Below the pieces are notes generated by a model. That model was given only the letters and a program-made list of their open reading frames with translations, ran no database searches and had not been told where the DNA came from. Shown piece after piece: positions 14,803 through 26,674 of a DNA stretch of 32,064 nt; positions within the stretch are counted from its first letter, which is position 1; each line of letters opens with the position of its first letter. The stretch is from the NCBI GenBank assembly GCA_005776735.1, contig SXOM01000167.1:1-32064 (forward strand). The letters are read 5' to 3'. Position numbers and translations under genes: made by a program. Source of the DNA: Pseudomonadota bacterium. Its GTDB lineage: Bacteria > Myxococcota_A > UBA796 > SXON01.

Positions 14803-17421
14803 ATGCGCCCCTCCTTCCTGCTTCCCCTCGTGCTGCTCTTGGGGTGCCCGCCTGTCCCCGACTCCGACCCGGGGAAGGACACCGCGCCAAAGGGCCCGGC
14901 CGACGTGGACAACGACGGGTTCGACATCGAGTCGGATTGCGACGACGACGACGCGGCGGTGCACCCGGGGGCCGACGAGCTGTGCAACGAGATCGACGAC
15001 GACTGCGACGGCGTGGTCGACGATGCGCCGGTCGACGAGTCCACCTGGTACGCCGACAGCGACGGCGACGGGTTCGGGGACGCGTCCACGTTCCAGCGGT
15101 CGTGCAGCCAGCCCGCGGGGCTGGTGGCCGACGCCACCGACTGCAACGACGCCAGCGCCGACTACCACCCCGGCGCGCCCGAGACCGGCTGCACCGGTCC
15201 CGACTACAACTGCAACGGCACCTACGACGAGGGCGACGGCGACAGCGACGGGTACATGGCCTGCGACGACTGCGACGACACCCGGGCCGAGGTCAGCCCC
15301 GAGGGGGTCGAAGCGTGCGACGGCCTGGACAACGACTGCAACGGCACGATCGACGACGGCGCCGGCGGTTCGCAGACCTACTACCTCGACGCCGACGGCG
15401 ACCTGTACGGCGACCGGACCGAGCCGGTCGAAGCCTGTGCCCTCCCTCCCGGCTACAGCGAGACGGGCAACGACTGCGACGACGACGACGCCACCATCCA
15501 CCCCGGCGCCGACGAGACGTGCAACGGGATCGACGACGACTGCGACGACGATCGCGACGAGAACCCGATCGACCCCGACACCTTCTACGCCGACGGCGAC
15601 AACGACGGCTACGGGTCGAGCGCGGTCACCGCGGCCGCATGCGACGCGCCCGCCGGCTACGTCGCCGCCTCCGGCGACTGCAACGACCGCAACGCCAGCA
15701 TCAACCCTGCCGCGCTCGAGTATTGCGGGGGTACGGACTGGGATTGCGACGGCGCGGTCAACGAAGCGGACAGCGTCGACATCGCTTCGTACTACGAGGA
15801 CACCGACGGCGACGGGTACTACGGAACGTACGCGGGTGCGGCCTGTACCGCGCCTTCGGGCACGAGCTTCTCGAGCACCGACTGCGACGAGAGCGACGCC
15901 ACCATCAACCCCGCGGCCGATGACGTGTGCAACGACGTCGACGACGATTGCGACGGCGCCACCGACGACGGCAACCGGGTGCCCGAGGACTATGCGTCCA
16001 TCCAGTCGGCGGTGCTCGCGGCGTCGGCCGGCGAGCGGGTGTGTGTCGCGGGCGGCACCTACTACGAGGACGTCGACTTCTCCGGTCACAGCGTGATCCT
16101 CGAGGGCGAGGACGGTTCGGGGTCGACGACCATCAAGGGCACGGCCACGGGGTCGGTCATCACCATCGCTTCGGGCGAAGCGGCGCCCGAGCTGCGCGGC
16201 TTCACCATCACCAACGGCGACGCGGCGTACGGGGCGGGCCTGTACCTGTACGGGTCGCCCGCCGTGCTCGACGACCTCGTCATCACCGGCAACTCGTGCA
16301 CGGACACCTACTGCTACGGCGTGGGCGCGTATGTCTACTACGCCGACGTGCAGGCCACCGACGTGGAGATCTCCGACAACGCCGCGGTGCCGGCGGTCAC
16401 CAGCTCCACCACCTACTACTACACTTCGGGCGTCGGCCTGATGTACGCGGGTTCCTACGGTACGTGGGACGGCCTCACGGTGTCGGGGAACTACGCCTAC
16501 TACAGCGGCCTCTCCAGCAGCTCCCAGTACGGCTACGCCTACGGCGTCGGCATGTACCTGTCGAGCGACCACAGCACGATGGAGAACATCGTCGTGTCGG
16601 ACAACTACGCGTACCGGGGCTCCAGCACCTACGGCTACATCTACAGCTACGGTACCGGGGTCTACGCCAACTCGGGCGACTCGACGTTCGACGGCCTGGA
16701 GATCAGCGGCAACTACGCGTACCTGTACGGCACCTACGACTACATCACCGGGGCCGGCCTCTACTCCTACTACGACACGTGTGATTACAACCACCTCGAC
16801 ATCCGCGGCAACACGGCGGACGCCTACAGTATCAACGGCGTCGGGGCCTACATCGGGTACAACTCCACGCCGACCATCACCAACGCGGTGATCGCCGGCA
16901 ACAAGGGAACGTACTCGGTCAGCGGCTACAACTACATCCAGGGTGTCGGATTCGTCGCCGGCCAGAACGCGATCCCCGTGCTCACCAACGTCGACATCTA
17001 CGGCAACAAGGGCACGGCCGACTATGTGTACGGCGCCGGTATCTACCTCGACTACTACGGCGGGATCGACGCCACCAACATCGCGGTGTGCAGCAACACG
17101 GCGGCCTACAGCTCCTCGGGTGGCGGCGGCGCCGTGTACCTGTACTCGAGCAGCTACTCGTCGGGCTATTCGTTTGCCTACTCCAACTTCTACGGCAACA
17201 GCAGCAGCGAGTTCACCAACCTGTCCACGGTGGTCGGCTCGTCTGGCAACATCGCGGTCACCCCGGGCTACACCAGCGTGGTCTCGAGCGACCCGACGGC
17301 GTGGGACCTCACCCTCACGGCCAGCTCGTCGATGAAGAACGCGGGCGACGCGACGATCACCGACACCGACGGCACGCGCTCCGACATCGGCAGCCAGGGC
17401 GGCCCCGGCGGCGGCTGGTAG
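14803..17421 (+). CDS. Surface lipoprotein with MopE-like Cys/Asp repeats and a C-terminal Tyr/Gly-rich right-handed parallel beta-helix
   Basis: GGAG SD; lipobox LLGC; repeated YADxDGDGYG...DCDD...HPGA.E.CNxxDDDCDG; VPEDYASIQSAV...GTYYE.VDF.G beta-helix cap; C-terminal DGTRSDIG. Confidence 0.88.
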   Translation: MRPSFLLPLVLLLGCPPVPDSDPGKDTAPKGPADVDNDGFDIESDCDDDDAAVHPGADELCNEIDDDCDGVVDDAPVDESTWYADSDGDGFGDASTFQRSCSQPAGLVADATDCNDASADYHPGAPETGCTGPDYNCNGTYDEGDGDSDGYMACDDCDDTRAEVSPEGVEACDGLDNDCNGTIDDGAGGSQTYYLDADGDLYGDRTEPVEACALPPGYSETGNDCDDDDATIHPGADETCNGIDDDCDDDRDENPIDPDTFYADGDNDGYGSSAVTAAACDAPAGYVAASGDCNDRNASINPAALEYCGGTDWDCDGAVNEADSVDIASYYEDTDGDGYYGTYAGAACTAPSGTSFSSTDCDESDATINPAADDVCNDVDDDCDGATDDGNRVPEDYASIQSAVLAASAGERVCVAGGTYYEDVDFSGHSVILEGEDGSGSTTIKGTATGSVITIASGEAAPELRGFTITNGDAAYGAGLYLYGSPAVLDDLVITGNSCTDTYCYGVGAYVYYADVQATDVEISDNAAVPAVTSSTTYYYTSGVGLMYAGSYGTWDGLTVSGNYAYYSGLSSSSQYGYAYGVGMYLSSDHSTMENIVVSDNYAYRGSSTYGYIYSYGTGVYANSGDSTFDGLEISGNYAYLYGTYDYITGAGLYSYYDTCDYNHLDIRGNTADAYSINGVGAYIGYNSTPTITNAVIAGNKGTYSVSGYNYIQGVGFVAGQNAIPVLTNVDIYGNKGTADYVYGAGIYLDYYGGIDATNIAVCSNTAAYSSSGGGGAVYLYSSSYSSGYSFAYSNFYGNSSSEFTNLSTVVGSSGNIAVTPGYTSVVSSDPTAWDLTLTASSSMKNAGDATITDTDGTRSDIGSQGGPGGGW

Positions 17422-17843: not shown

Positions 17844-18006
17844 GGTCTCTCCAGAGGTGCGCGCGGCTAACCCGGTTGGCGGGCCGCGCCTTCCCGCGAC
17901 GCGAGGAGGGGGGCCCCCCGCGGCGGTGGCTGGCGTGGTGGGTGGGCGGCGACGGCGGCGAGGGCGGCGGGCGACAGTGGGCGCGGTGGGTTACGCGCGC
18001 GACCGC

Positions 18007-18081
18007 TGGGGCGTCGACAAGCGGTAAGTCAAGGGACTTTGACTCCCTCATCCGAAGGTTCGAATCCTTCCGCCCCAACCA
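18007..18081 (+). tRNA. tRNA-Gln (anticodon TTG)
   Basis: Acceptor TGGGGCG/CGCCCCA, D arm GAC-AAGCGGTAA-GTC, anticodon stem AGGGA-CTTTGAC-TCCCT, T arm GAAGG-TTCGAAT-CCTTC, encoded CCA. Confidence 0.97.
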
Positions 18082-18579
18082 CTAGGTAGAACGCCGGGTA
18101 TTTCGATGTGACGGAAGGTGCTCCCAGCGAATCACGGCGTTGATAGAGGAGTTCCTGCGTTCGGGTTCGGCGGCGAGCAACTCGGTGGCGAGGGCGTCGG
18201 GGTGTTCCGCTCGGAGCCCGATTGTGGTGAGGGCCTCGTCGGGGAAGTCCGACAGGTTGTAGGTGACGATCCTTGGGGCCTGGGCCGCAATCGCGGTGCC
18301 GACGACATGCGCATCGTCGGGGTCGGGGAGCGCGATGTCCACGGGCGTTGGCGGGACGGCGCCGCGCGGAAACGCCCGGGTCATGGCCCCCCGCAGCCGG
18401 TGCCGCTGGTCCTCCGTGATGTCGGGCCGAGTCCTCGCGAGCGCCGCGAAGCACTCGTCCAAGATGCGGCCGGACCACACCGGCTCGATGAGGCCGGCCG
18501 ACCCGAGCCGAAGGAGGAGGTCGCGGACCGCCGCGTCGTAGAGAACGCAGGCGTCGATGACGATTCGGGAGGACGCCAC
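18082..18579 (-). CDS. PIN-domain toxin (VapC50-like/PIN_3 type), probably C-terminally truncated
   Basis: VIDACVLY...RDLLLRL...WS.RILDE...LPDPDDAHVV.TAI...IVTYNLSDFP; family-like sequence stops at ...LAAEPE and a non-family tail runs to the tRNA end. Confidence 0.82.
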   Translation of the reverse strand: MASSRIVIDACVLYDAAVRDLLLRLGSAGLIEPVWSGRILDECFAALARTRPDITEDQRHRLRGAMTRAFPRGAVPPTPVDIALPDPDDAHVVGTAIAAQAPRIVTYNLSDFPDEALTTIGLRAEHPDALATELLAAEPERRNSSINAVIRWEHLPSHRNTRRST

Positions 18580-18585
18580 GCCGTG

Positions 18586-19029
18586 TCAGTCGTAGAGGCC
18601 GAGTTCGTCCGACAGCCCGGTCAACTCGTCCAGCGCGGCACGGCGAGCCTCGTCGTCGCGCCTCTTGAAGGCGAGTACGTCGGCGAGGCGAATCCGTCGA
18701 TGGGTGCCGACTCGCCGGTGCGGGAGCTCGCCCGCGTCGAGCATTGCGACGAGGTGGGGACGGGAGACGTGCAGGAGTGCGGCTGCTTCGTTGGTCGTGA
18801 GCTCCTCGTCGTCGGCGACCACACGCACCGCGTGCCCGTTGCCGATGGTCTCAAGGACGTCTCCAAACACTTCGACGGCGGCGGCAGGCACCACGATCTC
18901 GATCACGCGTCCGGCGCGATCCTGGACGCGAAGAACGGCGTCGGCGGGACTCGACACGTCCGCCAAGGCTTCGCCGGCCTGGCGGGCGGTTCGCACCGTG
19001 TCGCGGTCCGGGGTGGTGTGGATGGACAT
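18586..19029 (-). CDS. Excisionase-like HTH_17 DNA-binding protein, antitoxin partner of the PIN toxin
   Basis: ELTTNEAAALLHVSRPHLVAMLDAGELPHRRVGTHRRIRLADVLAFK...ALDEL..LSDELGLY; 6 nt upstream of the PIN gene. Confidence 0.88.
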   Translation of the reverse strand: MSIHTTPDRDTVRTARQAGEALADVSSPADAVLRVQDRAGRVIEIVVPAAAVEVFGDVLETIGNGHAVRVVADDEELTTNEAAALLHVSRPHLVAMLDAGELPHRRVGTHRRIRLADVLAFKRRDDEARRAALDELTGLSDELGLYD

Positions 19030-19035
19030 GGATCA

Positions 19036-19064
19036 AGGATAGCCACCGTACGGCCTAAGTGCAA
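19036..19064 (-). promoter_or_regulatory. sigma70-type promoter of the HTH_17/PIN operon (leaderless)
   Basis: Minus strand TTGCAC-17 nt-TATCCT-6 nt-ATG(19029); CCGTACGG palindrome in the spacer. Confidence 0.72.
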
Positions 19065-19109
19065 TATGTGAAACGCTGTCGCGCTCACGGATTCGGGCAC
19101 GCCGACGGC

Positions 19110-19402
19110 GGCGGGGGGCGAAGGACTCGAGCCACGGTGACCGGCCGAGGTCGAACATGGCAGCGGGGCGATGGGTGGCGAGGAGCGGGCCGAGGGTGGC
19201 GTAGTCGATCACCTCCTCGGGCGTGATCATGGCGACCTGGGCGCGGGCGAACCGCACCCGGCGGACGGGGGTGGTGCTCCCCCAGTCGGGGTTGTGGTAG
19301 TCGGTCCCCCGGAGGCTGGTGCCGCTCGAGTCCCAATGCAACCGGAGTAACTCCGGCCCGCGGCCCTCGTGCCAGAACGATTCGACGTGTATTGGGGATC
19401 AA
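19110..19402 (-). pseudogene. Frameshifted, 3'-truncated hypothetical gene coupled to the ART-like gene
   Basis: TTG(19402) overlaps the upstream TGA; removing one A from TTG ATC CCC AAT A gives MIPIHVESFWHEGRGPELLRLHWD...ITPEEVIDY...AAMFDLGRSPWLESFAPR, after which the sequence degrades; left boundary approximate. Confidence 0.5.
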
Positions 19403-19752
19403 GGTGCCGCCGTGAACGAAGCCACCACCTCGATCTCACCGACGAGCGCGTCGTTGAACGCTTCCAGCTCCTCCGCCGGGATCCAGTACTCCTCGTGCTC
19501 GCGCGCGCCGACGACGTGCCGCTCGTACCGGTCCAGGAACGCCTTCCGCACCGCGAAGCGCGTCACGAACCCGACGCCGCTCTCCTTGACGTTCCAGCGC
19601 TCGGCGATCTCCCGCGCGTAGGCCTCGTTCGTCACCGGGTAGAAGATCGGCTGATCAGGCAGACGGCGCGGCCAGCGCAGCCAGCCCGAAGCCGCTACGA
19701 GCGCGAGCTCCTTCGGGCCGGTGGGGCGAAACAAGGTGACGACGTCTTCCAC
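19399..19752 (-). CDS. Small 'ADP-ribosylation/crystallin J1'-type protein, probable ADP-ribosyltransferase-like fold
   Basis: 117 aa: VEDVVTLFRPTGPKEL...WP.RLPDQPIFYPVTNEAYAREIA..WN...GFVTRF.V...VG...H.EYWIPAEEL..FN; start supported by the paralogous copy with ATG at the same position (21770). Confidence 0.8.
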   Translation of the reverse strand: MEDVVTLFRPTGPKELALVAASGWLRWPRRLPDQPIFYPVTNEAYAREIAERWNVKESGVGFVTRFAVRKAFLDRYERHVVGAREHEEYWIPAEELEAFNDALVGEIEVVASFTAAP

Positions 19753-19809
19753 CCCGCCCTCGTACTCCCGCATCCACGGGCCGGCATCGTCGCCGGGCGC
19801 CTTCGGCGC

Positions 19810-19815
19810 TATGAT
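19810..19815 (+). promoter_or_regulatory. -10 element of the UPF0175/DUF3368 operon (leaderless)
   Basis: TATGAT-tgctgc-ATG(19822). Confidence 0.62.
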
Positions 19816-19821
19816 TGCTGC

Positions 19822-20094
19822 ATGTCCGCACCTGCCCGCACCGTCGATGTCGCCACCGCGCTGCCTTGGGGTCGCGCGGGAGAGCCCGACGTCCGCGCGC
19901 TGGCTCGCGAGCTGCGCCTGCTCTGGATCATCGAGGAGGTTCGCCAGCACCGCCTCGGGGTCGGCAAGGGCGCCGAGCTGGCGGACGTGCCCCGCGCGGC
20001 GTTCATGCGTGTCCTCGGGGAACATGGCGTGCCGGTGATCGACTACTCGGCCGACGATCTCGAGCGTGAACTCGGCACCTTCGGTCCCGGGTGA
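19822..20094 (+). CDS. UPF0175-family predicted antitoxin
   Basis: LARELRLLW..E....LGVGKGAELADVPRAAFMRVLGEHGVPVIDYSADDLEREL; GTGA overlap with the next gene. Confidence 0.85.
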   Translation: MSAPARTVDVATALPWGRAGEPDVRALARELRLLWIIEEVRQHRLGVGKGAELADVPRAAFMRVLGEHGVPVIDYSADDLERELGTFGPG

Positions 20095-20576
20095 TCGTCG
20101 TTCCGGACGCTGGCCCGCTGATCTACTTGGCGGGGGCGGGCCAGATCGAGTTGTTGCGGACCCTCTACACGGAAGTGGTCGTGCCACGGGTCGTCTACGA
20201 TGAGGTCACCGTCGGCGGCGCGGGGCTGACAGGCAGCGCGGAGGTTGCGGCGGCCGCGTGGATCCGGGTCGTCGACCAGGCTCCTGACGCCACGCTCCTC
20301 GGTCGCCTGGACGCAGGTGAGGCGGCGGCGATTCCACTGGCGGCGGCGTTGGGTGCGATCCTCCTTGTCGACGACGGGGAGGCGCGCGCTGTAGCCGGGG
20401 AGCGCGGCATCCCTGTCATCGGGAGCCTGGGCGTGCTGCTCGGTGCGAAGCAGCGGGGGCACGTCGCAGCGGTCCGTCCGGTTCTGGACCGGATGATGGA
20501 GCTGGGGATGTTCGTGTCATCGGCGCTCCGGGCGCGTGTGCTCGTGCTGGCGGGTGAGGGCGACGGCGGAAGTTAG
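20091..20576 (+). CDS. DUF3368-containing PIN-domain toxin
   Basis: IVVPDAGPLIYLA...VVVPRVVYDEV...LDAGEAAAI.LA...LLVDD.EAR..A...G..VIGSLGVLL.AK..G. Confidence 0.88.
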   Translation: MIVVPDAGPLIYLAGAGQIELLRTLYTEVVVPRVVYDEVTVGGAGLTGSAEVAAAAWIRVVDQAPDATLLGRLDAGEAAAIPLAAALGAILLVDDGEARAVAGERGIPVIGSLGVLLGAKQRGHVAAVRPVLDRMMELGMFVSSALRARVLVLAGEGDGGS

Positions 20577-20724
20577 AACTCCGCGAGTGGCTTCGGGGAC
20601 GCATCGAGGTCCGCGCGCGAGGCCGCTTACGGCGCTACTTCGCCGCCATCAAATACTCGAACTCCTCGATGGCGCTCTCCCCTGGATCGACCCAGAAAGT
20701 TCTATAATCATCCAATATGCCCAC

Positions 20725-20904
20725 TCAGCCAGGCCGCCACGGGCCGCCCGACGAGCCCGCGAGCCGTGCGTAGGCCTCGTTCGTCACCGGGTAGAAGCTC
20801 GGCTGCTCGGGCCGCCGAGGGGGCCAGCGCTTCCAGCGCGAAGCCGCCACGAGCGCGAGTTCCTTCGGGCCGGTCGGGCGGTAGAGGATGACGACGTCTT
20901 CCAC
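20725..20904 (-). pseudogene. Truncated second copy of the ART-like (J1) gene
   Basis: VEDVVILYRPTGPKELALVAASRWKRWPPRRPEQPSFYPVTNEAYAR, then unrelated sequence and TGA; DNA homology 20764-20947 to 19612-19795. Confidence 0.85.
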
Positions 20905-20981
20905 GGCTGCCCTGTACTCCCGCTCGCCGCCTCCGGCATCGTCGCCGCGCGCGCCTCGTTCTTCACGACGGCGACCGCGCG

Positions 20982-21000
20982 GTTATAACGTCGTTCATAC
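20982..21000 (+). promoter_or_regulatory. -10/operator region of the AbrB-Doc operon
   Basis: Palindrome GTTATAAC (contains TATAAC), imperfect repeat GTTCATAC 11 nt later, then GAGG SD before ATG 21011. Confidence 0.55.
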
Positions 21001-21010
21001 GAGGTGCCCC

Positions 21011-21232
21011 ATGGTCAAGACGCTCTCCCCGATCGGCAACAGCCTGGGACTCATCATCGACAAGGCGATCCTTGATCTTCTCGGGATCTCCCGCGACACC
21101 CCCCTGGACATCAAGACGGACGGGGAGGCGTTGATCATCCGACCGGTGCGGACCGAGGCCACCACCGTCGCCGACTCGACGCGCCGGATGATGGACGTGC
21201 ACGCGGAGACGCTGCGGAAGCTCGCGAAGTGA
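21011..21232 (+). CDS. AbrB/MazE/SpoVT-family antitoxin
   Basis: MVKTLSPIGNSLGLIIDKAILDLLGI.....LDI...GEALIIRP; C-terminal HAETLRKLAK; GTGA overlap with doc. Confidence 0.88.
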   Translation: MVKTLSPIGNSLGLIIDKAILDLLGISRDTPLDIKTDGEALIIRPVRTEATTVADSTRRMMDVHAETLRKLAK

Positions 21233-21633
21233 GGTTCCTGTCGGCCGCGGAGGTGCTGGAGATCCACGCGGCCCAGCTCGCACGCTTCGGAGGAGGGAGC
21301 GGCGTGCGTTCGCCGGAGCTGCTCGAGTCCGCGGTGGCGCAGGCGGAGGCGACGTTCGCAGGCGAGTACCTTCACGTGGACGTGTTCGAGATGGCGGCGG
21401 CGTACCTCTACCACATCGTCCAGAACCACCCCTTCGTGGACGGGAACAAGCGCGCGGGGCTGCTGAGCGCTCTCGTGTTCCTCGATCTGAATGGCAGGAC
21501 GGTCGGGGTCTCGGACGAGCGGCTGTACGCGATGACGATGGCGGTCGCGAGTGGGGAGGCCGGGAAGGAACAGGTCGCCGCGCTCTTGCGGGAGCTGGCC
21601 GAAGGCGCGTCGCTACCAGGGGATGTTCGTTAG
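21229..21633 (+). CDS. doc: Death-on-curing (Doc/Fic-family) toxin
   Basis: FLS..EVLEIH...FGG.SGVRS.ELLESA...AAAYLYHIVQNHPFVDGNKR (Doc-type motif). Confidence 0.92.
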   Translation: MRFLSAAEVLEIHAAQLARFGGGSGVRSPELLESAVAQAEATFAGEYLHVDVFEMAAAYLYHIVQNHPFVDGNKRAGLLSALVFLDLNGRTVGVSDERLYAMTMAVASGEAGKEQVAALLRELAEGASLPGDVR

Positions 21634-21692
21634 AACCCACCACGTCTCTCGCGGGCCCTTTCCAGGTCCCTCGACGTACGCGTTCAGCGGTC

Positions 21693-21894
21693 CTACTTCC
21701 AGCCGGACGCCGCCACCAAGGCGAGCTCCTTGGGGCCGGTCGGGCGGTAGAGGACGACGACGTCTTCCATGTCTGCCCTGTACTCCCGCTCGCCGCCTCC
21801 GGCATTGTTGCCGCGTGGGACTCCTCCTTCACCATCGCGGCCGTGTGGTCATTACATCGTTCCTACAGGGTGCTGCATGGTCACGACGCTCTCC
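21693..21894. pseudogene. Third copy of the ART-like 5' end (MEDVVVLYRPTGPKELALVAASGWK-stop, minus 21693-21770) plus decayed AbrB promoter and first codons (plus, ATG 21877)
   Basis: 21697-21894 aligns without gaps to 20831-21028 (about 33 mismatches in 198 nt by hand count); ATG GTC ACG ACG CTC TCC vs ATG GTC AAG ACG CTC TCC. Confidence 0.85.
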
Positions 21895-22829
21895 AGGACG
21901 TTCGGCGATACGCGATCCAGGAAGCGGGTGACCGACGAGCGCCACAGCGCGGCGTCTGCGGAGTAGAGGCCGACGTGGCCCGCGCTGGGGAACACGACGA
22001 GCTCAGAGGGTCCCGCCAGCGAGGCACGAATGGACTCGACCTCGGCGAGGTGTGCCCGAGGATCGTCCTCTCCATTGAGGAGCAGGGTCGGCGTATCGAT
22101 GTTCGCCGCGAAGTCGACAGGGTTCATCTCGAAACCGTTGAACCCGAGCTCGACCCCGCCCCAGAAGACCAGCAGCGCCGCTCCGGGTTGCGCGGGGAGG
22201 CCCATCGCCTCGAACCGGTGGCCGACCGTCGTGAGGAGCCGGTCATAGGGGTTCTCGAGGACCAGGGCGTCCGCAGCGGCACCCAGCACCCCGACCGCGC
22301 GCAGCACCGCGGCGCTCCCCATCGACTTGCCGAACAGCACCACACGACCGTCGCCTTGGTGTGCGTTGGCGAGCGCGGCGACGATGTCCGCCTCGGCCCA
22401 GCCGAGCGACGTGGTGTTGCCAGGCGACTCCCCGGATCCCGGGAAGTCCACCATCACCGTTGTCCAGCCCGCGGCGTGGAGCACCGCGGCCTCGTCGAGC
22501 AGGTCCGACTTGGACCCGCCGTATCCGTGGAACAGCAACGCCGTCCCTCGGCCTGACCCCGGAACGGTCCAGGTTGACACCCCAGCCTGTACCGTACTCG
22601 AGGCGACGAGGCCGACATCGACGGGAAGTCGGCTCACGGTCGGTCTCGGCACCACGACGCCGGTGAGGGCCACCGCGATGCGCTCGGTCGCGGAGAGGGC
22701 TTCTGGATTGCCGGTCTTCGCCCCATCCGATGCGAAGTGGGTGAACCGCCAGGCGTGCGCGGCGACGATGACGTTGCCGCATGCGAGGGCGACAGACGCG
22801 GCGAGTACCGCCTGGCGACGACGCGTCAC
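21852..22829 (-). CDS. Alpha/beta hydrolase (exported or membrane-anchored)
   Basis: 3' part of ORF 21852..23576; GTG 22829 then a hydrophobic segment; LFHGYGG, VDFPGSGES, GKSMG nucleophile elbow, LLLNGEDD, AGH. Confidence 0.85.
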   Translation of the reverse strand: MTRRRQAVLAASVALACGNVIVAAHAWRFTHFASDGAKTGNPEALSATERIAVALTGVVVPRPTVSRLPVDVGLVASSTVQAGVSTWTVPGSGRGTALLFHGYGGSKSDLLDEAAVLHAAGWTTVMVDFPGSGESPGNTTSLGWAEADIVAALANAHQGDGRVVLFGKSMGSAAVLRAVGVLGAAADALVLENPYDRLLTTVGHRFEAMGLPAQPGAALLVFWGGVELGFNGFEMNPVDFAANIDTPTLLLNGEDDPRAHLAEVESIRASLAGPSELVVFPSAGHVGLYSADAALWRSSVTRFLDRVSPNVLESVVTMQHPVGTM

Positions 22830-22923
22830 AGCAATCCGCCTGCGCGAGCCAAGAGCCTGGCCGGGTCGAGGTCGGGTCGGTTGATCCTGCTTTCCGCGTG
22901 CGCCACCCGCCCGCGACGCCCGA

Positions 22924-23874
22924 TCACGGGGCCACCCGGGTGTTGGTGGCGTCGATCTCGGCCTGGAACGCCGCGGCGACCCAGGCGTGCCCGCGTTCGT
23001 TGAGGTGCACCGCGTCGTTGGAGTCCCGTCGCAGCGCGACCGGGTCGGCGGGCCGCGGGACCATGGCGACGTCGAGCCCCGCCTCGCGGGCGATCCCGGC
23101 CAGCTCGACGGGGCGCATCCACGCCGCCTCCAGCCGCGGCACCATGCGCGTGATCGGCCGCAGTTCGGCGAGTCGCCGGAGCGCCGGAACGGCCCGGCGA
23201 ACCTCCGTCGGCGCGGCCGGGAGCGTGGCGCTCCGGCCCGTGCGCAGCGCGAGCTGCCAGCTCGTGAAGCGCCAGGCCTCGGAGTGGGAGAAAAGCCACG
23301 GCCAGTGCGCGTCCTTCCAGACCGTGAACTGGGTGGGTGGGGAGGCCAGCGCCCAGCGCCCTTGCACCCGCGTGGCGCGCCGCGGCGTGACGTCGCCGAG
23401 GTCGTTGCCGCAGAGGAGGAGCAGGGTTCGCTCGGGACGCAGCCGGTCGCCGAGCGCCTCGATGAGCGCCACCAGGTCGCTCGGGTGGTACCCCACCTCC
23501 GCCAGCACACACACGGGTGGGCCCCCGGTCCGGATCGCCAGCGGCCAGGCGTTGGCGAAGTCGGTGGTGCGGCCACCGGCGGTGGTCTGCGTGGTGGTGC
23601 TGTCGCCGAGCGCGAGCCAGTGGGGCCGGGTCAGGTCGCAGGTCCCCCACCGGCTCGTGAACCCCGTCGGGGTCAGGGTGAATCCGCGTGGGACGTAGTC
23701 CACAGCGCTGAGATCGACGCCGTGGGCCGAGCGTGGCACCGTGTCGGTACCGGGCATCCCGGTGTTGAGTCCCTGCCACAGATCGAGGTGCTCCCGCCGC
23801 GCCCAGTGCTCGATTGCGCCGAGCGTTCCGACGAGGACCACCGCCGCCGCGCCGAGCAGGCGGCGCCTACGCAA
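22924..23874 (-). CDS. SGNH/GDSL-type hydrolase with N-terminal membrane anchor
   Basis: LALGDS (block I), LCGND (block III), DAVHLNERGH (block V); start uncertain (TTG 23874 chosen; the ORF's ATG 23955 overlaps a TAGGAT -10-like hexamer). Confidence 0.72.
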   Translation of the reverse strand: MRRRRLLGAAAVVLVGTLGAIEHWARREHLDLWQGLNTGMPGTDTVPRSAHGVDLSAVDYVPRGFTLTPTGFTSRWGTCDLTRPHWLALGDSTTTQTTAGGRTTDFANAWPLAIRTGGPPVCVLAEVGYHPSDLVALIEALGDRLRPERTLLLLCGNDLGDVTPRRATRVQGRWALASPPTQFTVWKDAHWPWLFSHSEAWRFTSWQLALRTGRSATLPAAPTEVRRAVPALRRLAELRPITRMVPRLEAAWMRPVELAGIAREAGLDVAMVPRPADPVALRRDSNDAVHLNERGHAWVAAAFQAEIDATNTRVAP

Positions 23875-24016
23875 CGGAGCCCCCGCGCCCGCGTTGGGCG
23901 TCGCGCCGCGGTGGCTCGCAGGGAAGGCGCAGGGGAGCTCCGACGTGCAGGGCATCCTACCTCGCGGACGGCGGCTCCGAACGGCGCCGTGGGCCGGCCG
24001 GCGGACTCGGCGCGTG

Positions 24017-24030
24017 TCGGGACGGTCGCG
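24017..24030. repeat. REP-like repeat core, partial copy 3
   Basis: tcgggacggtcgcg, 14-nt exact core, in a divergent intergenic region. Confidence 0.5.
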
Positions 24031-24055
24031 GGCCGGACCCCGAGAGGTGAATCGG

Positions 24056-24064
24056 TGCTATGAT
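24056..24064 (+). promoter_or_regulatory. Extended -10 promoter (TGcTATGAT)
   Basis: 27 nt upstream of ATG 24092. Confidence 0.5.
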
Positions 24065-24091
24065 CGCGGCCTCTCGTCCCGGGACCGCAGC

Positions 24092-26674
24092 ATGCACCGT
24101 CCGTCGTCCAGCCTCCTCCTCGCCCTCCTCGCTGCGTGCTCCGACTCGGGCGTGACGCAGCACAACGTCGACCCGGTCGCCGAGATCACCTCGCACCAGG
24201 ACGGGGACACGGTTTCCGAGGGGTACGCCGTCACCCTCCGCGGCAGCGTCGGCGACGACGACGACGCGCTCGACTCGCTCTCCGTGGCGTGGTTGGTGGC
24301 GGGGGTGCAGGTGTGCGAGGAGGCCACGCCGGACGCGGCCGGTGTGGTGGTCTGTGATCACACGTTCGTGCCGGCGGGTGGCCAGGTGGTCCTCGAGGTC
24401 GCCGACGCACACGGGGGCCGCGGTTCGGACACGCTCTCGCTCGGGGTCACGCCGACCGACGCGCCGACGGCCACCATCACCAGCCCCGTGGCCGACGGGC
24501 GGTACTACGCAGACCAACTCATCACGTTCTCGGCCCTGATCGGCGACGCGGAGGACGCCCCGTCGGCGCTGGTCCTGAGTTGGGAGACCGAAGCGCTCGG
24601 CGAGCTCGGCCTGGACCTGACGGTGGGCGACGACGGCGCGGTCGAGGGCTTCAGTCGGCTCCCGGCCGGAGACCACTGGTTGCGCCTGCACGTCACCGAC
24701 ACCACCGGCAAGGAGACGATCGACAGCGTCTTGTTCACCGTCGGACCGGACAATTCCGCGCCGACGTGCAGCCTGCTCGCGCCGGTGGACGGCGCGGCGG
24801 GTGCGCTCGGAGACGAGCTGCGGCTGGACGGCATGGTGGGCGACGTGGACGTGCCTGTCGACGTGCTGAGCGTGGTGTTCACCTCGAGCCTGGACGGGGC
24901 CCTCGGGGCGCCCACGGTCGACACCGATGGGCGGGTTCGCTTGAGTTGGGACGCCCTCTCGGCGGGCACCCACCTGTTGTCGCTGGAGGTGGTCGACGAC
25001 GTGGGCGCCACGTGTGTCACGAGCGTCTACTACACGGTCGGGACGCCCCCCTCGGTGGTGATCGACGCGCCGCTGGATGGGGAGGTGGTCAATGAGGGGG
25101 ACGAGCTCGACATCGAGGTCACGGTCTCCGACACCGAGAGTGATCCTACTGAACTCACGTTGTCTTGGGCGAGTGACCTCGACGGCGAGCTGGGCACCGA
25201 GGGGGCCGACTTCTCGGGGTACGCCGCGCTCGCCGCCACGTTGTCGGCGGGCGATCACCGCCTGACGGTCACGGCCACCGACCCCGAAGGGCTGTCGGCG
25301 GTGGACGCGGTCTCGGTGACGGTCAACGCCCTCCCGACCGCGCCCACCGTGACGTTGTCGCCCGATCCGGCCGGCACCGACGACGCGCTGACGGCGTCGG
25401 CGACGGGCTCGGTCGACCCCGACAGCTCCGGCACCCTCTCCTACACCTACGATTGGTACGTCGACGGCGTGCTCAGCGGCGCGTCCACCAGCGCCATCCT
25501 GCCCGCGGCCTACACGACCAAGGGCGAGGTCTGGCGGGTTGTCGTCACCCCCAACGATGGGTGGGGCGACGGCGCCCCCGGCGAAGCGAGCCTCACCATC
25601 GGCAACACCGCGCCGACGGTGAGCGTGAGCCTGACCCCCACCACCGCGCGCACCGACGACACGCTCACTGCCGCGCCGGTCACGAGCGACACCGATGGGG
25701 ACGCCGTGAGTGTCACCTATGACTGGTTCGTCGACGGCGTCCTGGTCCGCTCGGGCGCGTCCAGCACGTTGTCGGGCTCCTACTTCGACAAGGGCGAAGA
25801 GGTGGTCGTCGAGGCCGTCGCCGACGACGGGGTGACCACCACCACCGCCGCCTCGGCCGGCGTCGTCATCGCCAACACTCCGCCCGGGGCCCCGACCCTC
25901 GCCATCGATCCCTCGGGGGCCACCGCCGGAGACGACCTGTGGTGCGAAGTGACGGTCCCGAGCGTGGACGCCGACGGCGACACCGTCACCTACTCCATGG
26001 ACTGGTCGGCTGACGGCGTCGCCTACACCGCGCCCACCACCACCACCTGGACCGACGACACCGTCGACGGAACCGATGTCGGCGCCAGCGAGATGTGGAT
26101 GTGTGTCGCGACGCCCCACGACGGCGAGGACGTCGGCACCACCGCCTCGGCCAGCGTCACCACCACCACTTCGTCGTGGTCGGGCACCATCGAGATGCCT
26201 TCGACCTCGACGGTCGACGGGTTCAACCACGGCGAGTGGTCGGCGCTCAATGGCGGCGGGCGTGTCGCCACCCGCATCGATCTCACCGGCGACTGCGTGA
26301 ACCCGCGATTGGCGTTCTACCAGCACAGCTCGGCCGACACCTCGATCACCGGCTCGTTCTACGTCATGAACAGCTCCGGAACGGTCCTGGACTACTCGAC
26401 CTACGCCACCTACTCCGGCTGCAACGACTGTTGGCTCGGCCCCTCCTCCGACCTCTCCCTCACCATGAGCGCAGGAACGGTCTACTACCTCGGCTTCTCC
26501 AACGACTCCGGCGGCGACATGTCGGGCCCCTCCATCTACCTGGACGCCTCCAGTCGCACCGTCGGCATCGCGACATTCAGCGATCCGCGCGCCGACAAGC
26601 CGGCCTCCCCCACCCGCGGCCTCCCGAGCACCACGGTGAGCTGGCAGAATCGGTGGCGCGTGATCTGCAACTGA
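24092..26674 (+). CDS. Surface lipoprotein with tandem Ig-like (Big/PKD-like) domains and a C-terminal beta-sandwich
   Basis: Lipobox LLAAC; repeats P...ITSP.DG...D.ED....L...W.S.LDG.LG...LSAG.H.L.L.V.D; N.APTV...P...T.D.LT...D.DGD...Y.W.VDG. Confidence 0.85.
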   Translation: MHRPSSSLLLALLAACSDSGVTQHNVDPVAEITSHQDGDTVSEGYAVTLRGSVGDDDDALDSLSVAWLVAGVQVCEEATPDAAGVVVCDHTFVPAGGQVVLEVADAHGGRGSDTLSLGVTPTDAPTATITSPVADGRYYADQLITFSALIGDAEDAPSALVLSWETEALGELGLDLTVGDDGAVEGFSRLPAGDHWLRLHVTDTTGKETIDSVLFTVGPDNSAPTCSLLAPVDGAAGALGDELRLDGMVGDVDVPVDVLSVVFTSSLDGALGAPTVDTDGRVRLSWDALSAGTHLLSLEVVDDVGATCVTSVYYTVGTPPSVVIDAPLDGEVVNEGDELDIEVTVSDTESDPTELTLSWASDLDGELGTEGADFSGYAALAATLSAGDHRLTVTATDPEGLSAVDAVSVTVNALPTAPTVTLSPDPAGTDDALTASATGSVDPDSSGTLSYTYDWYVDGVLSGASTSAILPAAYTTKGEVWRVVVTPNDGWGDGAPGEASLTIGNTAPTVSVSLTPTTARTDDTLTAAPVTSDTDGDAVSVTYDWFVDGVLVRSGASSTLSGSYFDKGEEVVVEAVADDGVTTTTAASAGVVIANTPPGAPTLAIDPSGATAGDDLWCEVTVPSVDADGDTVTYSMDWSADGVAYTAPTTTTWTDDTVDGTDVGASEMWMCVATPHDGEDVGTTASASVTTTTSSWSGTIEMPSTSTVDGFNHGEWSALNGGGRVATRIDLTGDCVNPRLAFYQHSSADTSITGSFYVMNSSGTVLDYSTYATYSGCNDCWLGPSSDLSLTMSAGTVYYLGFSNDSGGDMSGPSIYLDASSRTVGIATFSDPRADKPASPTRGLPSTTVSWQNRWRVICN

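Follow-up and report, generated by a model that had tools for sequence, protein, structure and literature searches.

Truncated gene copies among toxin–antitoxin pairs at a Myxococcota tRNA-Gln locus: a probable record of tandemly accreted islets without integrases

Tandem accretion of cis-mobilizable elements (CIMEs), which are flanked by att sites and have lost their integrase and transfer genes, is established at tRNA genes and other target genes (PMC5704250). We examined a tRNA-Gln locus on contig SXOM01000167.1 (positions 1 to 32,064; this stretch of 32,064 nucleotides is called the window) of a Myxococcota_A metagenome-assembled genome (MAG; GCA_005776735.1). Here the 5′ end of one small gene, which we call X, occurs three times among toxin–antitoxin (TA) genes, and a second sequence, the junction element (JE), marks cassette borders. 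We favour, with moderate confidence, the reading that att-bounded islets lacking integrases accreted in tandem between tRNA-Gln and an alpha/beta hydrolase gene and that their junctions were later trimmed by deletions. As in CIME accretion, the insertion in the window starts at the tRNA 3′ end, a relative has an empty site, and content varies; no integrase was found within the units, and the putative att repeats that separate them carry a stretch resembling a tRNA 3′ end, degenerate in the window itself. Unlike CIMEs, units of the window type are tiny (~1–2.5 kb) and hold nearly only TA pairs and X, and no integrase-bearing parent element was found in the sampled genomes. Their att-like end also has a conserved small open reading frame (ORF) and a box whose spacing is fixed, and this same end occurs at Gln, Val and Pro tRNAs. 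We file the locus under tandem accretion of decayed tRNA-targeting islands, with reservations over the att repeats of the window and the recombinase. An initial sequence-only reading of this DNA knew of no named system with such a layout, which was too strong a statement, as tandem accretion of CIMEs is described (PMC5704250).

Other described systems resemble the locus in part, and each differs from it in structure. A piece of a conserved gene, seemingly imported, also stands before each variable cassette in Rhs/CdiA orphan cassette arrays. The repeated piece of those arrays is an internal or 3′ part of a large delivery protein and is fused in frame to a toxin tip, for tip replacement, with immunity genes behind it, whereas the window repeat is the 5′ end of a separate, divergent 117-aa gene that is not fused to the TA genes, and X has no visible delivery role; the locus is not an orphan array of this type. 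Integrons and clusters of attC sites lacking integrases (CALINs) share with it small cassettes, many of them TA pairs, a recurrent ~150-nt element and no integrase nearby. Their attC sites are imperfect palindromes that fold as single-strand hairpins with R″, L″, L′ and R′ boxes. JE, in contrast, is not hairpin-like and looks coding, and the cassettes of the window have presumed promoters of their own, lie in mixed orientation and are anchored at a tRNA gene. JE fails the attC-type fold and non-coding features, no attC model having been run, and by the fold, coding and recombinase tests applied the locus is neither an integron nor a CALIN. Defence or variable hotspots between core genes, such as those of Pseudomonas aeruginosa (PMC10250203), likewise have a fixed position between conserved markers, varying cargo and often no mobility genes; they differ from the window-type borders, whose tRNA-like repeats point to site-specific insertion beyond homologous exchange of flanks.

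A repeat search of the window aligned 19612–19771 with 20764–20923 (160 nt, 84% identity) and 20830–21028 with 21696–21894 (199 nt, 83% identity). The sequence-only reading, which had reported three 5′ ends of X and a gapless match of 198 nt at ~83%, was thus essentially right in its coordinates and lengths. Translation placed the loss of the X reading frame after …NEAYAR in copy 2 (X′) and the end of copy 3 (X″) at …ASGWK, followed by TAG. Together with Pfam and NCBIfam matches, it also bore out the TA partners first assigned: copy 1 faces a UPF0175/DUF3368-PIN pair, copy 2 an AbrB/Doc pair, and copy 3 only an AbrB stub of 6 codons, identical at 17/18 nt to the AbrB start beside copy 2. The homology between copies 2 and 3 is abruptly bounded, with 8/30 and 10/32 positions identical just outside it. 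All three X matches of the MAG (5.07 Mb, 676 contigs) fall in the tRNA-Gln locus. The proposal that each copy stands head-to-head with a TA promoter held for the divergent gene arrangement but not for the promoters, as a sigma-70 consensus and terminator scan found neither promoter nor terminator at the X–TA intergenic regions.

Differences among the three copies fall mostly at synonymous sites. Nei–Gojobori estimates over the common codons gave a ratio of non-synonymous to synonymous rates (dN/dS) of 0.31 for copies 1 and 2, which are separated by 10 synonymous and 10 non-synonymous changes, 0.16 for copies 1 and 3, and 0.19 for copies 2 and 3, with dS of 0.34–0.76. Fisher tests of synonymous against non-synonymous change, on just 10–20 changes per pair, gave p = 0.014, 0.002 and 0.017. 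The stubs are 83–84% identical to copy 1, a distance comparable to that of X in other species of the family (~78–87%), so most of the divergence would predate truncation. These values, below the ratio of about 1 expected of random decay, fit X copies that diverged as working genes before they were truncated, in line with the earlier suggestion that they had diverged as functional genes elsewhere. X′ carries the replacements G23R, L31R and I36S at one near-invariant and two invariant positions of a 30-sequence alignment, as expected once function is lost.

Unlike X, JE (~150 nt) recurs at cassette borders across genomes. We compared 151 genomes of the order and found the 89-nt part at 20635–20723 again at cassette borders, at 80–89% identity, with border copies in G004 (two), G022 (two), G013 (two), G015, G019, G044, G045 and the metagenome contig L172. 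The 23-nt AT-rich core, TGGATGATTATAGAACTTTCTGG, is present in 23 of the 151 genomes at ≤2 mismatches, and the reversed core, used as a control pattern, matched none of them. We collected 34 distinct JE copies, 1–5 per genome, with a single copy in the window genome. JE often lies just upstream of TA operons or genes, among them helix-turn-helix (HTH)/PIN_3, DUF433, MqsR-like/ribbon-helix-helix (RHH) and GNAT genes. A UPF0175/PIN-like pair also stands near JE in G062, as judged by eye and unscored.

The interior of JE behaves as coding sequence. Its ORF encodes L-D-(D/A)-(Y/F)-R-T-F-W-(V/I/L)-D…, and in one frame the differences within the core are synonymous (AGA/CGA, ACT/ACC, TTC/TTT, GCC/GCG/GCT and CTG/TTG). 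All copies reach a stop after 15–67 codons, mostly 25–34, and among 7 gap-free copies the ratio of non-synonymous to synonymous differences (pN/pS) was 0.26 in the coding frame vs 0.76 and 2.3 in the others. Gene callers seldom pick up this ORF: only 7 proteins of it (29–76 aa), all unnamed or hypothetical, were present among 5.8 billion; Pfam, protein-family searches and Rfam gave JE no name, and no literature search was aimed at it. In the subfamily to which the window copy belongs, 7 of the 34 copies have GTTCT exactly +136 nt from the core start, within the motif GAGTTCTAAC, which in the consensus fold can pair with TAGAAC of the core; the intervening spacer varies. The complementary box, GTTAGAAC, occurs exactly twice in the 32 kb (0.09 expected per strand), and both boxes supply or overlap the stop codon of unrelated toxins, DUF3368 PIN and Doc.

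The outer end of JE resembles a tRNA 3′ end. Read in the tRNA sense, JE ends …GTTCTATAATC-ATCCAG-TAT-GCCCAACCA, and the tRNA-Gln of G013 and G022 ends …GGTTCGAATCCAGC(C/T)GGCCCAACCA. G013 has the empty site: GTTCGAACGCCGAGAATCGCCGTGAGCGCC comes after the tRNA-Gln end, and the hydrolase stands 49 nt from that end with no insert in the gap. In G022 the site is occupied: the same 30-nt flank lies 3′ of JE, and ~4.5 kb of cassettes separate JE from tRNA-Gln. Similar arrangements occur at other tRNA genes. A JE-like copy and tRNA-Val lie 3.9 kb apart in G023 and share a 71-nt direct repeat that takes in the last 18 tRNA nt and the terminator (score 56; best of 300 shuffles 14). G016 has two JE-like copies with Pro-type ends 3.6 and 4.6 kb from tRNA-Pro, the outer one with the tRNA downstream flank, and the Val-type JE end of G045 is identical at 18/18 nt. 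Gln- and Pro-type ends score 14–17, which is marginal vs shuffle maxima of 14–16. Downstream of most non-Gln copies, in the tRNA sense, come a GC-rich hairpin that varies in sequence and a tract rich in T, as is usual after tRNA genes. JE is on the strand of the tRNA in all 7 fetched loci that contain both (the window, G004, G022, G019, G023, G016 and G140) and on its 3′ side in 6 of them, as expected of a displaced 3′ end. From these sequence comparisons we read JE as an attR-type junction, in which a displaced or copied tRNA 3′ end would be joined to the conserved end of an integrative-element family.

Read on the strand of X, the parts of the array recur in a set order. From the hydrolase towards the tRNA, 3.8 kb away, it runs AbrB stub (antisense), 25 codons of X″, and TAG with 57 nt and a box; then Doc and AbrB (antisense), 47 codons of X′, ~40 nt, JE, 55 nt and a box; and then PIN and UPF0175 (antisense), full X, orf102, HTH, PIN_3 and tRNA. 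The unit TA (antisense)–X–JE–box is thus present up to three times, and the spacer between DUF3368 PIN and X′ measures 187 nt. X″ terminates in TGGAAG|TAG and the JE ORF in GGGAAG|TAG, a common ending (…GGAAG|TAG) such as a microhomology deletion should leave. TAG and the box are 57 nt apart at X″ and 55 nt apart in the intact JE, with unlike spacer sequences. We infer that ~0.4 kb was deleted between X″ and the JE that belonged to it, with the 5-nt microhomology GGAAG as the joint. The PIN_3/tRNA, hydrolase/AbrB-stub and X′/JE (~40 nt) borders are, to judge by their sequences, illegitimate joints. Decay rises away from the tRNA: X is full, X′ keeps 47 codons, X″ 25, and the last TA pair 6.

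Under the accretion reading, two to three small, related integrative islets without integrases would stand in tandem across the 3.8 kb. Each would consist, from the tRNA outward, of X, a divergent type II TA pair and the ~150-nt JE, ending in an attR-like copy of the tRNA 3′ end. The islets would have diverged in other genomes and been added serially at the tRNA/att site by site-specific integration, presumably by a recombinase acting in trans, their integrase genes having been lost or never having lain within them. Deletions at the junctions would then have cost the redundant X copies their 3′ parts and one JE some of its length. The remaining 5′ stubs of X would survive beside the TA promoter region because addiction counter-selects deletions that reach the promoter or antitoxin, and would be scars of islet history, not landing pads. 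The newest unit may adjoin the tRNA, which the decay gradient would fit, although incoming elements can use attR as well (PMC5704250). On this account the X repeats are ordinary decay products; of more interest is the conserved JE that TA islets at three tRNA species have in common.

Several observations count against this reading. The main weakness is that the search of the islets turned up no integrase or recombinase. PF00589 has 7 matches in the window genome (G000), none of them on the window contig (C67), which upholds the earlier description of the array as integrase-free; in 5 further genomes it has 31 matches, 0 near JE, in a search that MAG incompleteness limits. The sole recombinase candidate is a Phage_int_SAM_4 N-terminal fragment beside JE in G062, cut by the contig end. 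The tRNA-like end of the window JE is degenerate, and its score of 7 against the local tRNA-Gln is not significant. The 3′ 25-mer of the tRNA, at ≤3 mismatches, matches only the tRNA itself, and an initial argument against an island was drawn from that search; the gapped comparison with JE reversed it. The JE ends of the window and G004 match tRNA-Gln of the G022/G013 type and not the local one, so displacement of the local tRNA end did not give rise to these two JE copies. A JE-like copy in G140 (L154) lies 5′ of tRNA-Val, which does not fit attR, and JE copies in G013 lie also beyond the hydrolase, so that the islet borders are only partly understood. The second JE remnant consists of 6 nt, the spacing and the box, with a spacer unlike those of other copies. 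No X–AbrB/Doc islet came to light elsewhere in the 151 genomes, where the two strongest matches were inspected and neither lies beside X. Finally, the contigs of two freshwater runs, which drop rare variants, contain no excised or joined islet form.

The locus in relatives bears on whether X itself could have recruited the cassettes. X has a patchy distribution, being carried by 12 of the 151 genomes with the window genome counted, and is repeated in none of the other 11. Five of these (G004, G006, G015, G019 and G022) pair X with TA genes, always a divergent UPF0175/DUF3368-PIN pair, next to tRNA-Gln where the contig allows. The other six have no TA beside X within the stretches examined, two being on short pieces only: X stands alone beside tRNA-Gln in G003, is a pseudogene with 2 stop codons in G005, and has no adjoining TA in G047, G141 and G070, and G059 has just two weak partial matches on short pieces, outside the neighbour check. 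The position of tRNA-Gln is conserved in G003, G004, G005, G006, G013, G019 and G022, and the TA cargo there varies among relatives, an outcome that the comparison proposed with the initial reading had anticipated. Relative to the X unit, HTH/PIN_3 is placed towards the hydrolase in G006 and G022 and towards the tRNA in the window, G004 and L172; MqsR-like/RHH pairs lie beyond the hydrolase in G013 and G022, and DUF433 cassettes occur in G015 and G019. The unit of G004 reads JE, PIN/UPF0175, X, CPCC domain, JE. The UPF0175/PIN–X module of the window is 75–87% identical in DNA to those of G006, G004, G022, G015 and G019. It reaches 85–87% against G006 and G022, where flanking genes reach 72–75%, and this greater likeness of the module fits horizontal exchange. 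An orphan AbrB on contig C25 of G003 matches at 84% identity, including ~30 nt upstream of AbrB, and a weaker match occurs in G020.

One alternative, which we consider unlikely, makes the 5′ end of X a recombination anchor: a circle or fragment bearing a TA pair and a 5′ part of X would insert by a homologous, Campbell-type crossover within X and each time leave one truncated and one full copy. The stubs do keep the promoter-proximal part and the full copy does stand at one end of the array, as a single crossover predicts. Moreover, a stretch of 30 nt in which copies 1 and 2 agree exactly stops right at the X′ break, and the coding-type divergence fits imported copies. However, copies 83–84% identical, with exact runs no longer than ~33 nt (the longest between copies 2 and 3), make a poor RecA-type substrate, and none of the 157 loci outside the family has these TA families beside X. 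An anchor also leaves JE, the box at both toxin stops and the tRNA-like ends unexplained. The sequence-only reading had taken the start of X for a landing pad beside which TA cassettes are interchangeable. The comparison supports neither part: X is repeated in 0 of the 11 other X-bearing genomes and faces a single TA type in them (5/5 of those paired), and the sequence that recurs at borders is JE.

A second alternative, equally tentative in our view, keeps the focus on JE. It may be the working recombination site of an undescribed trans-recombinase system that shuffles TA mini-cassettes at Gln, Val and Pro tRNAs across the order, as a tRNA-anchored analogue of integrons. The small ORF would then be a remnant of a recombinase gene spanning attP, or a directionality factor. 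Mx8 is a precedent for an integrase gene that spans attP. As a C-terminal integrase piece of this kind, JE found no counterpart: a search for longer proteins gave 3 matches, 0 of them recombinases. Other identities for JE were also rejected. A promoter on the opposite strand was considered because JE reads TATAAT there; several copies read TATAGG, TATACG or TATAGA at that place, a pattern that coding constraint fits better than a −10 box. As an IS91-type end it had one copy near Y2_Tnp in G040, with no match for the L131 pieces and a differing orientation. JE-like copies do lie beside a Y2_Tnp (IS91-family) piece in L036 (G040:C60, 3243–4960; Pfam E 4.3e-18) and, in L131 (G045:C132, 6149–7380), beside similar-looking ORFs that have no Pfam match. 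The JE core was not found in viral contigs, and the JE stretch was unmatched in phage records.

Local tandem duplication of the X–AbrB/Doc unit, and of X, followed by slow divergence and decay without import, is a rather doubtful explanation. It yields the tandem arrangement, and copies 2 and 3 have the whole X–AbrB intergenic region and the AbrB start in common. Yet the dS and dN/dS values of the three copies require two or three working paralogues kept for long and then a recent truncation of two of them, and no relative has two X genes. In addition, copy 1 faces a different TA family, and its intergenic homology ends by ~50 nt.

It is very unlikely that JE and the box work as attC-like sites for a tyrosine recombinase that would shuffle TA cassettes in the manner of an integron or CALIN. 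Chromosomal integrons are rich in TA cassettes. JE recurs between cassettes in direct orientation, the inverted repeat TAGAAC…GTTCTA has a fixed spacing of 136 nt, cassette order varies in that HTH/PIN_3 comes before or after the X unit, and the recombinase of G062 with its Phage_int_SAM_4 N-terminal domain is divergent to a JE–cassette array. These features are outweighed by the coding behaviour of the JE interior, by the divergent operons that the cassettes have of their own, by the tRNA-like ends and native flanks, which point to att sites of tRNA-targeting elements, and by a window contig with no recombinase. Folding gave no hairpin either: the DNA fold of JE has a z-score of −1.48, 21 of 200 shuffles fold as well, the consensus structure contains only an invariant 8-bp long-range helix without covariation, and Rfam with permissive filters over 17900–22000 returned the tRNA only.

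The assembly was examined in k-mer contigs of the sequencing runs from which it may derive. The MAG is fragmented (676 contigs, 81% complete), and two freshwater runs, which may be its source samples, contain 98–99% of the sampled words of 19300–22000. The k-mer contigs of both runs cover 19300–20936, 20910–21802 and 21776 onward and break solely at the 33-nt exact repeat common to copies 2 and 3. The three pieces have depths of 58/52/54 in the first run and 13/14.5/13 in the second, a test that is independent of the assembler of the MAG though not of the sample. One contig runs without a branch from within the tRNA across X, the PIN pair, the intervening spacer and the joint with X′ as far as 20936. 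Runs X3 and X6, with 19–33-nt or low-depth pieces only, are evidence neither way. Concatenation of strain variants of one locus, which the sequence-only reading had named as a possible refutation and which the fragmented MAG and the k-mer node common to copies 2 and 3 would allow, is highly improbable, because depths are near-equal with breaks only at the exact repeat, the tandem order is the only path that uses each contig once, the unbranched contig includes the X′–JE junction, and the k-mer contigs of the two runs offer no alternative joint.

Table 1 Features of the tRNA-Gln locus, with positions in the window
Feature	Position	Strand	Remarks
tRNA-Gln(TTG)	18007–18081	+	ARAGORN; Rfam tRNA 61.3 bits; anchor of the islet array; sole tRNA gene in the window
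PIN_3 toxin	18082–18579	-	Pfam PIN_3 1.2e-13; stop codon abuts tRNA-Gln 3′ end
HTH (excisionase-type) antitoxin, partner of PIN_3	18586–19029	-	Pfam HTH_17 1.4e-13; NCBIfam excise domain 2.9e-14
orf102, downstream of X	19033–19341	-	No Pfam/NCBIfam match; homologous stretch 3′ of X in G022
X copy 1, intact, 117 aa	19402–19752	-	GTG start at 19752; upstream ATG at 19773 would give 124 aa
UPF0175 antitoxin	19822–20094	+	Pfam E 2.4e-13; divergent from X copy 1
DUF3368 PIN toxin	20091–20576	+	Pfam 2e-13; pairs with UPF0175
Box GTTAGAAC, first	20572–20579		Overlaps DUF3368 PIN stop codon
Junction element (JE)	20635–20727	-	29-codon small ORF, GTG 20724 to TAG 20635; 23-nt core 20692–20714
Degenerate tRNA-3′-end-like part of JE	20710–20727	+	Read on the + strand
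Filler, JE to X′	20728–20763		~36–40 nt; no match to X-to-JE spacers of G004 or L172
X′ (copy 2)	20764–20904	-	First 47 codons only
X′–AbrB divergent intergenic region, presumed promoter/operator	20905–21010		84/106 nt identical to 21771–21876
AbrB/MazE-type antitoxin	21011–21232	+	Pfam MazE_antitoxin 4.6e-4, NCBIfam doc_partner 1e-5, both below cut-off
Doc/Fic toxin	21229–21633	+	Pfam Fic 9.5e-20; NCBIfam DOC_P1 1.2e-17
Box GTTAGAAC, second	21629–21636		Overlaps Doc stop codon; next bases resemble JE box flank in G022
Putative second-JE remnant	21637–21696	-	TAG stop and 57-nt spacer, joined to X″ at GGAAG
X″ (copy 3)	21697–21770	-	First 24–25 codons only
X–AbrB intergenic copy and first 6 codons of AbrB-like gene	21771–21894	+ (stub)	AbrB-like stub 21877–21894
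Alpha/beta hydrolase, right border	21852–22830 (start approximate)	-	Pfam Abhydrolase_1/6; frame is ORF 21852–23576

Protein X has no Pfam or NCBIfam family, although its homologues are numerous: 7979 of 8000 scored candidates matched at E ≤ 1e-3, with 64–100% identity among the 120 matches listed. The homologues come from Myxococcota, Actinomycetota, Proteobacteria, Cyanobacteria, Acidobacteriota and Verrucomicrobiota, and the 30-sequence alignment has 36 invariant columns. The AlphaFold model has a predicted local distance difference test (pLDDT) score of 91.8 and a predicted template-modelling (pTM) score of 0.84. Its best Foldseek matches are all of the ADP-ribosyltransferase (ART) fold, namely Tpt1/KptA, RhsP2-CT, the RCD1 PARP domain, CC0527 and TreTu, at E values of 2e-3 to 4e-2 (0 at ≤1e-3) and template-modelling (TM) scores of 0.4–0.6. 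‘ART-like’ is, on this predicted structure, a fair label at fold level. R9 and E88 are invariant and S58 near-invariant in the alignment and are only candidate positions for the catalytic motif of ARTs (R-S-E or H-Y-E). A tally of 133 nearest-neighbour proteins at 78 loci outside the family, made with heuristic ORF picking and with 17 proteins of >500 aa and one further ORF left out, counted NUDIX 5, SufBD 5, NadA, ADP-ribosylglycohydrolase, NADAR, Macro and NrtR 3 each, and Tpt1 2. Outside the family, the TA families of the window stood beside X at none of 78 genome loci and none of 79 metagenome loci, so X is not generally a TA partner.

The borders of the locus carry further traces of rearrangement. 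The PIN_3 ORF stops a single base past the CCA end of tRNA-Gln. The PIN_3 protein of the window covers profile positions 1–148 of 177 of the NCBIfam RSP_2648 PIN family, below cut-off, and aligned with the G006 and G022 proteins it has a shortened C terminus, with ~30 profile positions gone and a foreign tail of 15–20 aa instead; the toxin is probably inactivated. Directly 3′ of the window tRNA-Gln, ~24 nt (in the stretch 18082–18130) resemble the native tRNA-Gln downstream flank of G013. Next to X, orf102 is possibly a gene fragment. At the other border, the last ~19 residues of the hydrolase (21852–21911) are read from the strand opposite the AbrB stub and from neighbouring bases of the promoter copy. 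This 19-residue tail is lineage-specific, the conserved sequence of relatives stopping at …FLDR/FLHR. Large secreted proteins with Cys/Asp-rich repeats of the DxDGDGY type flank the locus (window 14803–17421 and 23741–26674).

Some loci of relatives show variants of their own. In G004, X is in frame with Cys_rich_CPCC in a 242-aa ORF (L014, G004:C186, 6014–6742; Pfam E 1.2e-24), which represents either a fused gene or a gene pair that has lost the stop between them. In G013 (L033, G013:C88, 5394–7500), the region upstream of the hydrolase has two MqsR-like/RHH pairs, paralogous and in tandem. Each is preceded by JE, and genes resembling those of insertion sequences follow; the hydrolase itself may lie inside an older islet. 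Between X and JE, L172 carries at 495–600 a stub (…VKILLHDNGADVE…) from a 169-aa gene that follows DUF433 in G019 (L034, 5307–5816). A putative RHH/PIN pair in L038 had no Pfam match at 1e-3 and was not counted as TA. L043 (CAMAXZ010000022.1), labelled a Klebsiella pneumoniae MAG, has 67% G+C and is syntenic with the Myxococcota-like locus; its label looks wrong.

A new cassette-capture system anchored on X is not supported. If the accretion reading is true, JE could lead to the recombinase that moves these islets and could serve to detect islets in MAGs that lack mobility genes. The locus would then be a compact record of TA persistence, legible in its serial gene stubs, in which islets decay and the addictive pair stays, together with a few adjoining bases.

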